Assembly: GCF_003334255.1 (NCBI RefSeq)
Contig: NZ_QOWU01000113.1
Direction: 5' to 3' (one strand)
From: Escherichia coli
GTDB taxonomy: Bacteria > Pseudomonadota > Gammaproteobacteria > Enterobacterales > Enterobacteriaceae
DNA length: 3,818 nucleotides
The notes beneath the pieces were generated by a model. It saw only the letters and a program-made list of their open reading frames with translations. It was not told the DNA's origin and did not search any database. Below, piece after piece: positions 1 to 3,818 of this stretch (its first letter is position 1; each line of letters starts with the position of its first letter). Made by a program: the position numbers and the translations under genes.

Positions 1-2315
1 ACACCAATCCGGCTGGTTGCCTCCTTCGTGAAGACAAACTCCCCGCGGTGGACAATCCCCGCTGGCTCATATTTGCCACCGGTTCCCGTAAATCCCCCGG
101 TCGCGAAATGGAAGTTCGCCGCCGCAGCCTGAATGGCCGTCCCCGTGGAGGCAGACGCACCACCACCGAAAGCACCGCCAATGGCGCTGCCGATACGCCC
201 GACAATCCCCACCATCGCCTGCTTCAGAAAAATCTCTGTCAGCATGGAGAGCACGGAACGGGTGAAACCACGCCAGTTCTGTTCGCTGCCGGTCAGCATC
301 GCTGCCAGATTCTGTGCAATACCGTCAAAGGTCTGCGTGGCCGCGCTTTTAACCTGCGAAAAACTGTCCGTCGCACTTTCCGCCCACTCGCCCCAGCCGG
401 ACTTCAGACCCGCCATCCAGCTTCCACGAAGCTGCTCCTCCGCAGACCAGGTGTTCTTCAGTGCAGATGTGGCCTTCGCCAGCGCATCCGGATTATCACC
501 GTACACGTCACGAAGGCGCTGCTCTTCCGACTCCCGCTGCGCCTGACGGTCGGTGAGGCCGCGGGCTTTTGCGCTGATTGCCGCCTGCTTCGCGCTCTGC
601 TGCTGTTCAAACCGCGCCGCCTGCTGTGCCAGCTCATTCAGCCGCTTCTGGTGTTCAACCTTGTCGCCCAGCTCAGCCAGCTGGCGTTTGTACTCCAGCG
701 TCTCTTTCTCATGAGCCAGCAGGGATTTTTCCTGCTCAGATAACTGCCGTTTCGTGGCGGCCTCTTTCAGGACCACATACTGATTTTCCGCTTTCCATAA
801 ATCCCGGCGCTGCTGGCTGATTTTTTCATTCGCACCGGCATGCTTTTCCAGCGTCAGGAGCTCGGTTTCAAGCGCCAGCATGGCTGCATGCGCCCGGTCT
901 TCCTGGCGCTCACCGGCAGACACCTTCACACCGGACGGCTTTTTCTGCGTCGACTCATAATCCTTTTTTGCCGACGCCATCAGCGTGTTGTAATCCGCCT
1001 GCAGGATTTTCCCGTCTTTCAGGGCCTTATTCAGCTCTTCCTGCCGGGCGGTATATTTCTCCAGTGGCGTCAGCAGGCGCTCATACGCCTTCTGCGCCTC
1101 TCCGGTATACTTCAGCTGTGACGACTCACGCTCAGCCCTGTCCCTTGCCGCCAGTTCACCGGCTTTTTCCATATCCGACTGCAGCGTTGCCGCTGCCAGA
1201 CCCAGACGGGCATTTTCCCGGTCATCCCATGCGCCCTGAAGGTTGGCCCGGAAAGAGGAGGTTTTACCGCGGCGCTGGCTCCGGCTCTGGTACCACTGCC
1301 ATTTTTTATCCGCCTCATCAAATGCCTTCTGCGCACTGGCGAGCATATCCGCTGAGGATTCCGGACGACCGATATCCAGAATGGCATCCCACATCGATTT
1401 GAACGCCTTCCCTGTTTTATCCGCCCAGGTTTCCAGCGTCCCCATGTTCTCTTTCAGGCGGCGGGTCTGCTCATCAAAGCCTTTCGTGGCAGCATCGTTC
1501 GCCGCCTGTAAGGCACCGGCCTCGTCTCCGGAACGCTGCAGCTGTGCAACATACGCAATCTGCTCTGCCGTCACGTTACGGAACTGGCGCGCCATCGCCA
1601 TCAGTCCCGACGTCGGGTCGGTGGTCAGTTTTCCGAAAGCCTCTGCAACCTTGTCCACTTCAACACCGGAGGCAGACGCAAAACGCGCGACACTCTGGTT
1701 AATGGCATCAAACTGTTCACCACCACGCACACCGGCATTCACCAGGGCTGCCAGTGACTCTCCCGCCTGGTTAAACGTCAGCCCTGCCGCCTGCCCGGCT
1801 CTGGAGAGCGTCAGCATACGATCGGCAGTCAGTCCGGCCTGATTGCCGGAAAGGACCAGCGTTTTATTAAATTCTGAAAGCGTGGAATCCCCCTGGTACC
1901 AGGCGTACGCCAGCGCACCTGTCGCCACCGCCAGCGAGGTGACCCCGACCATCGGCAGGGTGATCGCACCGGCAAGCCCCCTGAACATGGGGATCATCCC
2001 GCCGAAGGAGTCCTTCACCTGACCGCCCTGTTGCAGCAGGATGAGCCAGGGATTCTGACCACCGGCAAGCTGCGTGGCGATATCCGTAAACTGTGCGGGC
2101 AGGGTACGCATGGCTGCTTTATACTGCCCGACGGAAATCCCGGCTTTTTGTGCGGCCAGCGCCTGACGGTTCAGACTCTGCTCAACGGCACCGGCGGTTT
2201 TTCTGGCGTCGGTATCCAGTCCTGAAAAATGACGCCTTACCCGGCTCATCTGCTCATCGAAACGGGCCGCATCCAGACTCAGGTCAATAACAAGATCACC
2301 AACCGGCTGGGACAT
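1..2315 (-). CDS. H: Tail tape measure protein (lambda gpH-like), 3'-partial; 771 codons in window, C-terminus beyond window start
   Basis: Hand translation of the minus strand from ATG at 2315..2313 runs with no stop to position 3 (frame consistent at both ends). N-terminus MSQPVGDLVIDLSLDAARFDEQMSRVRRHFSG... and window-end segment ...GGKYEPAGIVHRGEFVFTKEATSRIGV closely match lambda gpH as recalled from memory. Central Glu/Lys/Gln/Arg/Ala-rich region typical of tape-measure coiled coils. GGAGG Shine-Dalgarno 8 nt upstream of the ATG. Gene is not in the supplied ORF track. Confidence 0.93.
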   Translation of the reverse strand, partial: MSQPVGDLVIDLSLDAARFDEQMSRVRRHFSGLDTDARKTAGAVEQSLNRQALAAQKAGISVGQYKAAMRTLPAQFTDIATQLAGGQNPWLILLQQGGQVKDSFGGMIPMFRGLAGAITLPMVGVTSLAVATGALAYAWYQGDSTLSEFNKTLVLSGNQAGLTADRMLTLSRAGQAAGLTFNQAGESLAALVNAGVRGGEQFDAINQSVARFASASGVEVDKVAEAFGKLTTDPTSGLMAMARQFRNVTAEQIAYVAQLQRSGDEAGALQAANDAATKGFDEQTRRLKENMGTLETWADKTGKAFKSMWDAILDIGRPESSADMLASAQKAFDEADKKWQWYQSRSQRRGKTSSFRANLQGAWDDRENARLGLAAATLQSDMEKAGELAARDRAERESSQLKYTGEAQKAYERLLTPLEKYTARQEELNKALKDGKILQADYNTLMASAKKDYESTQKKPSGVKVSAGERQEDRAHAAMLALETELLTLEKHAGANEKISQQRRDLWKAENQYVVLKEAATKRQLSEQEKSLLAHEKETLEYKRQLAELGDKVEHQKRLNELAQQAARFEQQQSAKQAAISAKARGLTDRQAQRESEEQRLRDVYGDNPDALAKATSALKNTWSAEEQLRGSWMAGLKSGWGEWAESATDSFSQVKSAATQTFDGIAQNLAAMLTGSEQNWRGFTRSVLSMLTEIFLKQAMVGIVGRIGSAIGGAFGGGASASTGTAIQAAAANFHFATGGFTGTGGKYEPAGIVHRGEFVFTKEATSRIG

Positions 2316-3167
2316 ATCTCACACCTCCGGAAATCCCCGCTGAAGCCATCATTAATGCAACATCATCCTCGCTGACATCCACCACATCTGCAGAAGGTGA
2401 AATATCGCCCCCTCCGTCCCCACCGAACCGGACGCCTCCGGCAAGTCCTGCCGCTTTCTGCATCAGCATTTTGTCCTCATCCGGCCTCTCCACCTGCTCT
2501 TCCTCATGCCGGGGGACAAGCAGACTGAAATCAGAGGGATGCATATCCGGATCGCAAAAAAACAGGCTGAGTACAGCGTACGTCAGCCCGGAAAAATGCA
2601 TATCCAGCTGGGTATCCTGAAAATAATGCGTGCGGTAAAAACGGTGCCAGTCGGCATATTCGGTGGATGTCATCCCGGCAAGCATGGCGCGCCAGTCGGG
2701 TCTTCCCATCTCACGCGCCAGTCTGAGGGCAAAGTTCAGCTCGCCGTCGAAGACTTTCCCGCAGAAAAATCATCATCAGTCAGCGTGTTATTTTTCGCCA
2801 CTTCGGTGCTGTCAGTATTCGCATGAACAGCCCCGCTCATCCCGGACAGACGTAACACCACCTCTTCCGCCCGGGCAATGGCATCAGCCGGCCAGGTCGT
2901 CAGCACATCCTGTTCGATCTGCATCACGGCCTCATTCATTGACAGCAGCTGCACTTTCTCCGGATGGTTATGCCACAGGGACATCGCCACCAGAAACGCG
3001 CCGGTTCTGACAAGATCTTCCACACTCACCTGCAGGTTGCCGCTGGCTTCAGCCTCTTCTGCCCGCCGTTTCAGCAGGGCAAGATGCTCGATACGCTGCA
3101 GCGCAGACAGCTCCGAAAGCGTGACAGACACACCGTTATATTCAAATTGTTCTGTTTTAAGAAACAT
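2296..3167 (-). CDS. Tail assembly chaperone G-T fusion (lambda gpGT-like), made by -1 programmed ribosomal frameshift at GGGAAAG (2760..2754)
   Basis: G frame reads ...DDDFSAGKSSTAS* with the slippery heptamer G_GGA_AAG immediately before the G stop. Shifting -1 at the heptamer gives ...SAGKVFDGELNFALRLAREMGRPDWRAMLAGMTSTEYADWHRFY...VRYVPAGW*, which joins the 2296..2709 ORF of the track (frame check: G codons start at coordinates congruent to 2 mod 3, T codons to 0 mod 3 on the minus strand). The T part resembles lambda gpT from memory. Stop TGA at 2298..2296. Confidence 0.88.
2324..2328 (-). promoter_or_regulatory. Shine-Dalgarno (GGAGG) for H, embedded in the 3' end of the T coding region
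   Basis: Minus strand reads CCGGAGGTGTGAGAT-ATG; GGAGG is 8 nt upstream of the H ATG at 2315 and lies inside the T reading frame. Confidence 0.75.
2736..3167 (-). CDS. G: Tail assembly chaperone G (lambda gpG-like), 143 aa
   Basis: ATG at 3167..3165 preceded by AGGAG (3179..3175, minus strand) with 7-nt spacing. Product MFLKTEQFEYNGVSVTLSELSALQRIEHLALLKRRAEEAEASGNLQVSVEDL... closely resembles lambda gpG (MFLKTE...). Stop TGA at 2738..2736. The track's longer ORF starts at a GTG at 3185 that lies upstream of the SD and is not used here. Confidence 0.92.
   Translation of the reverse strand: MFLKTEQFEYNGVSVTLSELSALQRIEHLALLKRRAEEAEASGNLQVSVEDLVRTGAFLVAMSLWHNHPEKVQLLSMNEAVMQIEQDVLTTWPADAIARAEEVVLRLSGMSGAVHANTDSTEVAKNNTLTDDDFSAGKSSTAS
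2754..2760 (-). other. -1 programmed ribosomal frameshift slippery heptamer G_GGA_AAG (X_XXY_YYZ) for G -> G-T
   Basis: Plus strand 2754..2760 is ctttccc, whose reverse complement is GGGAAAG in G-frame register G|GGA|AAG. It sits 6 codons before the G stop, as in the lambda G/T frameshift site. Confidence 0.88.
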
Positions 3168-3174
3168 GCGTGTT

Positions 3175-3179
3175 CTCCT
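3175..3179 (-). promoter_or_regulatory. Shine-Dalgarno (AGGAG) for G
   Basis: Minus strand reads TAA(V stop)-CGGGTGTTT-AGGAG-AACACGC-ATG(G). Canonical SD with 7-nt spacing in the 21-nt V-G intergenic gap. Confidence 0.8.
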
Positions 3180-3188
3180 AAACACCCG

Positions 3189-3818
3189 TTACGCGGCAGG
3201 GACATTAACGGTTACTGTCGCCAGAGCAACAAAATTACCGTTATCACTCATGACCACGACCGACGTTGTTCCTTTCTCAAGTGCGTTTACCGTCACTGTG
3301 TTCTCCTTCAACGTGGCTGTGGCCACCGCACGATGCACGGTCGACACCCTTAATGAAGGATCAGACGCATTATCCGGCAACACAGCCACAGTAAGTGTGC
3401 CTGCCTTCCCTTTTTCTAGGGTCAGGGTTTCCGGTTTAATGGTCACACCGGAAACCGGCGTAATTTTAGTGAGATTTTCCGCCATCGACGGGCGTCCCAC
3501 ATTGGTAACTTTCACCGTTCTGGTGATCACTTCCTTCGCCGTCACGGCCTTACCGATACTGCTGACCCAGCCACTGAACACATCCACCGTACCATTCGGG
3601 AACCGGATTTTATAGGCCCTGACATCCCCGCTTTCAAACCATGCGATAAGCCCTTTCTGGCCTTCCTCACCCGGTTTCCAGGCCAGCGTAAAACTGGTAT
3701 CACCTGCAGATTTCTGTCCCTGCCCGGTCGAGGTCCAGTCCGCGTCTTCATCATCCAGGTAGTTATCATCGTAGGATTCTGCCGTCATCTCGCCCGGCGT
3801 CAGATCCTTCACCTTAGC
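3189..3818 (-). CDS. V: Major tail tube protein V (lambda gpV-like), 5'-partial; N-terminal ~35-40 codons beyond window end
   Basis: Minus-strand frame is open to the window edge (3818..3810 reads A-K-V; the M at 3812 in the track is an in-frame GTG Val, not the start). In-window product ...[47 protein letters not shown]...[46 protein letters not shown]... matches the lambda gpV tube domain from memory, followed by a ~95-aa beta-rich Ig-like (Big_2-type) C-terminal domain. Stop TAA at 3191..3189. Confidence 0.93.

Follow-up and report, generated by a model that had tools for sequence, protein, structure and literature searches.

In phage lambda, the tail assembly chaperone G and its frameshift product G-T are made at a ratio of about 30:1, and both bind the tape measure protein H (PMC5009743). 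The T part of the fusion binds the tube protein V and starts the polymerisation of V around H; the virion retains neither of the chaperones (PMC5009743). The DNA analysed here, a stretch of 3818 nucleotides (nt) of contig NZ_QOWU01000113.1 that we refer to as the window, carries genes for these same proteins in the order V-G-T-H, all four on the minus strand. The identities of the genes, their order and overlaps, the conserved slippery site close to where G ends and the −1 frame that is open beyond it are directly observed. We regard it as close to certain that a lambda-type siphovirus or prophage of Escherichia or a close relative is the source of the window, and that the window corresponds to the V-G-T-H segment of that element's late (tail) operon.

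When the window was compared with the corresponding part of lambda (NC_001416, 8955-13103), the two were found to share gene order, orientation, the arrangement of the T/H overlap and the domain families, with 65-79% amino acid identity, and the heptamer G GGA AAG lies at an equal place near the end of G in both. A sequence-only reading of the window had described it as wholly a conserved lambdoid tail-assembly module. This description was borne out by the protein searches that it had proposed as a check, in which all four translations matched structural tail families of lambda in PHROGs, NCBIfam and Pfam. The gene map that came with it (V, G, G-T and H) is exact to the base, but its wording has to be amended, as V and H are cut by the ends of the window and T, rather than being an independent gene, is the portion of G-T read in the −1 frame. 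For the families of lambda V, G, G-T and H, all of the defining features that sequence can test are present.

The gene for the tail assembly chaperone G (2736..3167, minus strand) runs from an ATG start codon at 3167 to a TGA stop codon at 2736 and encodes 143 amino acids. The product, which is 66% identical to lambda G, scored 161.9 bits against the NCBIfam equivalog TIGR01674 (phage_lambda_G), well above the cut-off of 74.45, and it also matched phrog_42 of PHROGs and Phage_TAC_2 of Pfam (E 5e-48). Thus, G combines a score above the equivalog cut-off with a position upstream of the tape measure gene in the order V-G-T-H. The T frame (2296..2759, minus strand), which encodes the C-terminal part of the G-T fusion chaperone and ends at the TGA at 2298-2296, likewise exceeded the cut-off of its equivalog, TIGR01715 (phage_lam_T), with 213.6 bits against 77.35. 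It matched phrog_39 and the Pfam family Phage_tail_T and is 73% identical to lambda T, and the conceptual G-T fusion accordingly carried both Phage_TAC_2 and Phage_tail_T. In addition, phrog_32165, a profile of 290 positions for the G-T fusion, was covered end to end, positions 1-142 being aligned with G and positions 137-290 with the T frame.

The two frames are joined by a predicted site of −1 programmed frameshifting, the slippery heptamer G GGA AAG (2754..2760, minus strand). The sequence GGGAAAG occurs only once in the window, at 2760-2754 of the minus strand, where it sits in the zero frame of G (GCG GGA AAG) seven codons ahead of the G stop codon, and it is unchanged in all 57 aligned distinct relatives, lambda included. 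From the heptamer, the −1 frame stays open for 154 codons to the TGA at 2298-2296. Near the 3′ end of G, the zero frame therefore contains a site of the form X XXY YYZ, from which the −1 frame is open into the T domain. The RNA 3′ of the slippery site folds into a modest hairpin that did not differ significantly from shuffled sequences (z −1.36), and we make no claim of a stimulatory structure. The single heptamer, together with Shine-Dalgarno sequences read from the sequence ahead of G and H, agrees with the earlier account of one frameshift signal and ribosome-binding sites. The Shine-Dalgarno sequence of G, AGGAG at 3179-3175, lies 7 nt ahead of the G start codon within the 21-nt spacer between V and G (3168..3188, minus strand). 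The ribosome-binding site of H (2316..2328, minus strand) consists of GGAGGTG at 2328-2322 and a 6-nt spacer, is located inside the end of the T frame, and is conserved with one or two base changes in 56 of the 57 relatives.

Downstream of G-T, the tail length tape measure gene H (3..2315, minus strand) starts with the ATG at 2315-2313, which gives an overlap of 20 nt with the end of T, and its frame is open to base 3. The window holds the first 771 of about 853 residues, the C-terminal 82 or so lying outside it. Over these 771 residues H is 79% identical to lambda H (lambda residues 1-767). The protein matched the tape measure family phrog_24 with 1015 bits, the Pfam domains TMP_2 (E 1e-68) and Tape_meas_lam_C (E 3e-21), and the NCBIfam equivalog TIGR01541, which represents the C-terminal region of the lambda tape measure protein, with 314.6 bits against a cut-off of 104.75. 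A TMP_2 N-terminal region and a lambda-type C-terminal region are thus found in one long protein downstream of G-T. The gene for the major tail (tube) protein V (3189..3818, minus strand) enters at the edge of the window at 3818 and ends with the TAA at 3191-3189, so that the C-terminal 209 amino acids and the stop codon are present. The alignment begins at residue 40 of lambda V, placing about 39 N-terminal residues outside the window, and identity to lambda residues 40-243 is 65%. The V fragment matched the major tail protein family phrog_41 (E 3e-89) and, in Pfam, Phage_TTP_12 (E 2e-57) followed by Big_2 (E 3e-11, fragment residues 122-202); no NCBIfam model matched the fragment. It is therefore built as a lambda-type tube domain with a C-terminal immunoglobulin-like (Ig-like) domain, the latter encoded at 3213..3455 of the minus strand in a diverged, mosaic part of the gene.

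Everything that the lambda mechanism requires of the sequence is present in the window, namely the heptamer in the right frame and place, the open −1 frame with a T domain, and the conservation of the site. If assembly proceeds as in lambda, H would be the ruler that sets tail length and G the abundant chaperone that coats it. Close to the end of G, a few percent of ribosomes would shift back by one base at G GGA AAG and so yield the G-T fusion, the T part of which would recruit the tube protein V. V would then polymerise around H, after which G and G-T would leave the structure, and the Ig-like C-terminal domain of V would decorate the exterior of the tube. We infer the frameshift itself, its efficiency and these assembly roles from the lambda literature by homology.

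One alternative to a window filled by four tail genes alone is that a further gene is hidden within them, overlapping or antisense. The presence of long open reading frames (ORFs) on the plus strand, among them ORFs of 245, 231 and 199 amino acids, would favor this proposal, for which the candidates are the plus-strand ORFs 48..743 (231 amino acids), 2878..3615 (245 amino acids) and 133..546 (137 amino acids). We compared the six longest plus-strand ORFs with PHROGs, and ten ORFs (eight on the plus strand and two in alternative frames of the minus strand) with NCBIfam and PADLOC. None of the ORFs, the three candidates included, had a significant match in the libraries against which they were tested; a further minus-strand alternative-frame ORF, 1829..1975 (48 amino acids), stood outside these scans. 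The only row returned (E 0.076, 11.7 bits against a cut-off of 653) was dismissed as noise. The kind of evidence that the sequence-only reading had named as able to overturn it, a significant non-structural match of an alternative-frame or plus-strand ORF, was thus sought and not found. A search of the literature on unannotated lambda genes detected by ribosome profiling gave nothing relevant in the library that was searched.

The length of the ORFs was evaluated against 1000 shuffles in which synonymous codons were permuted among positions of the same amino acid within each gene, so that both the protein and the codon usage were kept. The longest antisense open stretch, 262 codons, was close to the shuffle mean of 264 (P=0.43). 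The ORF lengths match those of the shuffles and are, therefore, no longer than would be predicted from the protein sequences of the actual genes and their codon usage. Conservation was examined in 56 distinct relatives with 80-98% DNA identity. ORF 48..743 was interrupted by in-frame stop codons in 43 of the 56 and ORF 2878..3615 in 54, which speaks against both as genes, whereas ORF 133..546 was uninterrupted in all 56 and the minus-strand ORF 1829..1975 in 55. The openness of the latter two might be taken to support a hidden gene, but it carries no weight because the shuffles left these frames open in 29% and 25% of cases, respectively. Furthermore, no promoter-like site was detected on either strand of the window, and in the pairwise comparison with lambda the proportion of conserved codons with a synonymous change was equal in G, T and H (0.35 each; 0.48 in V). 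On the family scans, the shuffle lengths and the breaks in most relatives, we rejected the alternative-frame and plus-strand ORFs as genes, and we consider the chance that any of them is a hidden gene to be negligible.

The four tail genes account for the coding content of the window, and they leave little space for anything else. The 21-nt gap between V and G at 3168-3188, given earlier as the only intergenic space, was found to be exactly that, and there is no other non-coding space. The contention that an accessory (moron) gene or cassette has no room here also holds, given the 21 free nt and the absence of a family match among the alternative ORFs tested. Neither an extra ORF with signals, nor space for one, nor a family match indicative of moron, accessory or defence cargo was found. 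Terminator-like sites were at chance level (5, compared with 3.2 ± 1.9 expected from shuffles), and the window contains no transfer RNA or transfer-messenger RNA gene and no Chi site. The absence of repeat architecture was likewise upheld, as tandem repeats are absent and those of the dispersed and inverted type form short families of two or three copies, 14-30 nt long, of a kind often due to chance. We conclude that the window contains no accessory, defence, toxin or regulatory cargo. The value of this result is that of a clean negative: the segment can be annotated with confidence as V (partial), G, G-T and H (partial) and removed from lists of candidate novel systems, and any accessory cargo of the element is to be sought in the flanking contig.

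We also scanned the genes for reduced synonymous variation. Among the 57 distinct relatives, synonymous diversity was very low over T and its neighbours, an ascertainment artefact that stems from the retrieval of these relatives by similarity to T. The pairwise comparison with lambda, which is free of this bias, showed a few short troughs, the largest of which is a run of 72 nt within H (about 1949-2021). On the minus strand, this run comprises H codons from about 102 to 125 and is 100% identical to lambda, whereas H overall is about 80% identical at the DNA level. One explanation would be that the run is a functional element at the nucleotide level, such as an RNA structure, an internal signal or a recombination site. 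In its favor are the 24 consecutive codons without a synonymous change, where 35% of conserved codons differ elsewhere, and even a rare AGG codon is retained. The only match in a permissive Rfam scan of the window also falls at this place, but it is to a eukaryotic microRNA family and far below threshold (E 0.23, 22.5 bits against a gathering score of 60). Folding of the run was no better than that of shuffles on either strand (z 0.70 and −0.51). In addition, many changes are found across the run in phage mEp237, and in Stx1_9793 the sequence changes midway through it to an unrelated one, which gives the run the look of a mosaic junction or a recently exchanged patch. A nucleotide-level element at this site is, then, very improbable. 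A broader version, in which either this block or ORF 133..546 reflects a real overlapping function, for example a small antisense-encoded protein or a nucleotide-level signal, seems to us hardly more credible than the hidden genes considered above. We read the 72-nt run as a probable mosaic patch, located where the protein is strongly conserved, and not as a separate element. Local stretches in which H, G or V is perfectly identical to lambda were, after folding and alignment with more distant phages, rejected as functional elements, and they were attributed to mosaic exchange together with strong protein conservation.

The V-G-T-H module found here is already known and very common. A total of 146 phage records matched the window, 102 of them over at least 80% of its length. 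The match to Escherichia phage PhiR5_1 (PV340545.1) extends over all 3818 bases with 98.4% DNA identity, and the annotation of this phage places V, G, T and H within the complete structural gene order that is standard for lambda, B-C/Nu3-D-E-FI-FII-Z-U-V-G-T-H-M-L-K-I-J, from the portal gene B to J. Matches were present in 3738 of 5426 complete E. coli genomes, or about two thirds, at a median of two places per genome and with the same annotation, which makes the module one of the commonest E. coli prophage modules. The best of these, in a lambdoid prophage of strain UCPROB-002 (NZ_CM142927.1), is 98.9% identical, again over all 3818 bases. Both PhiR5_1 and the UCPROB-002 prophage are annotated with the same V, G, T and tape measure H and differ from the window by scattered point differences.

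Because nearly all of the E. coli matches are chromosomal prophages (8295 of 8330 places), and several relatives have single-base insertions or deletions in H, one could envision that the segment derives from a decayed, non-functional cryptic prophage and that its genes are relics. Against this, none of the frames is broken anywhere in the 3.8 kb of the window, which has also kept the slippery site and the two ribosome-binding sites, and the closest record belongs to a phage that was propagated on E. coli C. We think a decayed origin unlikely, though clearly less so than the hidden genes, and it concerns the state of the element and not what the sequence encodes. No finding contradicts the assignment of the window to a lambda-type V-G-T-H segment, and what weighs against it consists of limits. 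The ends of the window cut both V and H. The synonymous scan of the relatives is biased around T, so that in G and T its main basis is one pairwise comparison, that with lambda. Finally, no identical record exists in the collections searched, the best match being 98.9%, and the element may be either an active phage or a defective prophage.

The annotation of PhiR5_1 departs from that of the window in one respect, in that H is given as two coding sequences; the H frame of the window is intact at the corresponding place. This division arises because the PhiR5_1 record is one base shorter near the position that matches 78-82 of the window. The shortfall lies in a G-rich stretch (PhiR5_1 9700-9780, window about 78-82), which reads ACGGGGA-CGGGGG in PhiR5_1 and ACGGGAACCGGTGG in the window and lambda, and it reflects an error of sequencing or else a genuine frameshift in the record. 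One IMG/VR contig (L032) is gapped at the same alignment column, and a few other relatives have single-base insertions or deletions elsewhere in H.

The differences between the window and lambda are ordinary allelic and mosaic variation. The strongest divergence is in the Ig-like domain of V, where the alignment with lambda is much weaker than in the tube domain. V is in this sense a mosaic (3189-3455), its tube domain being near that of lambda and its Ig-like C-terminal domain only weakly similar. The Stx-converting lambdoid phages, for example Stx2a_JNE110649 (LC727869.1), share about 93% DNA identity with the window across G, T and H, but the match begins at G. Since V of the Stx2a-type phages is a different allele and the match runs from G onward, a mosaic junction is placed at the V/G boundary. 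The spacer at this boundary is 15 nt long in lambda and 21 nt in the window; at least four sequence variants of it occur among the 57 relatives, and that of the window is in the minority (3 of 57). Small insertions and deletions distinguish the acidic C-terminal tails of G and T from those of lambda, and H is rearranged, with insertions and deletions, around residues 318-400 and has a deletion of two amino acids at about residue 459.

The same two sites of H stood out among the relatives. The tape measure gene varies most in the stretch at about 1119-1364 (residues 318-400 or so), where the non-synonymous pairwise diversity is 0.3-0.4 and two insertions or deletions occur relative to lambda-type alleles. 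The two-residue deletion at about residue 459 is apart from this stretch and common to only a few relatives. At the other extreme, only two parts of the window could still be detected by DNA search in distant phages: the T domain at 2518-2762 in phi80, mEp213 and a Klebsiella phage, and the part of H at 1995-2130 (residues from about 62 to 106) in Klebsiella phages and Serratia phage Scapp. In these two intervals lie the best-conserved cores of the proteins, that of T and that of the TMP_2 region, respectively.

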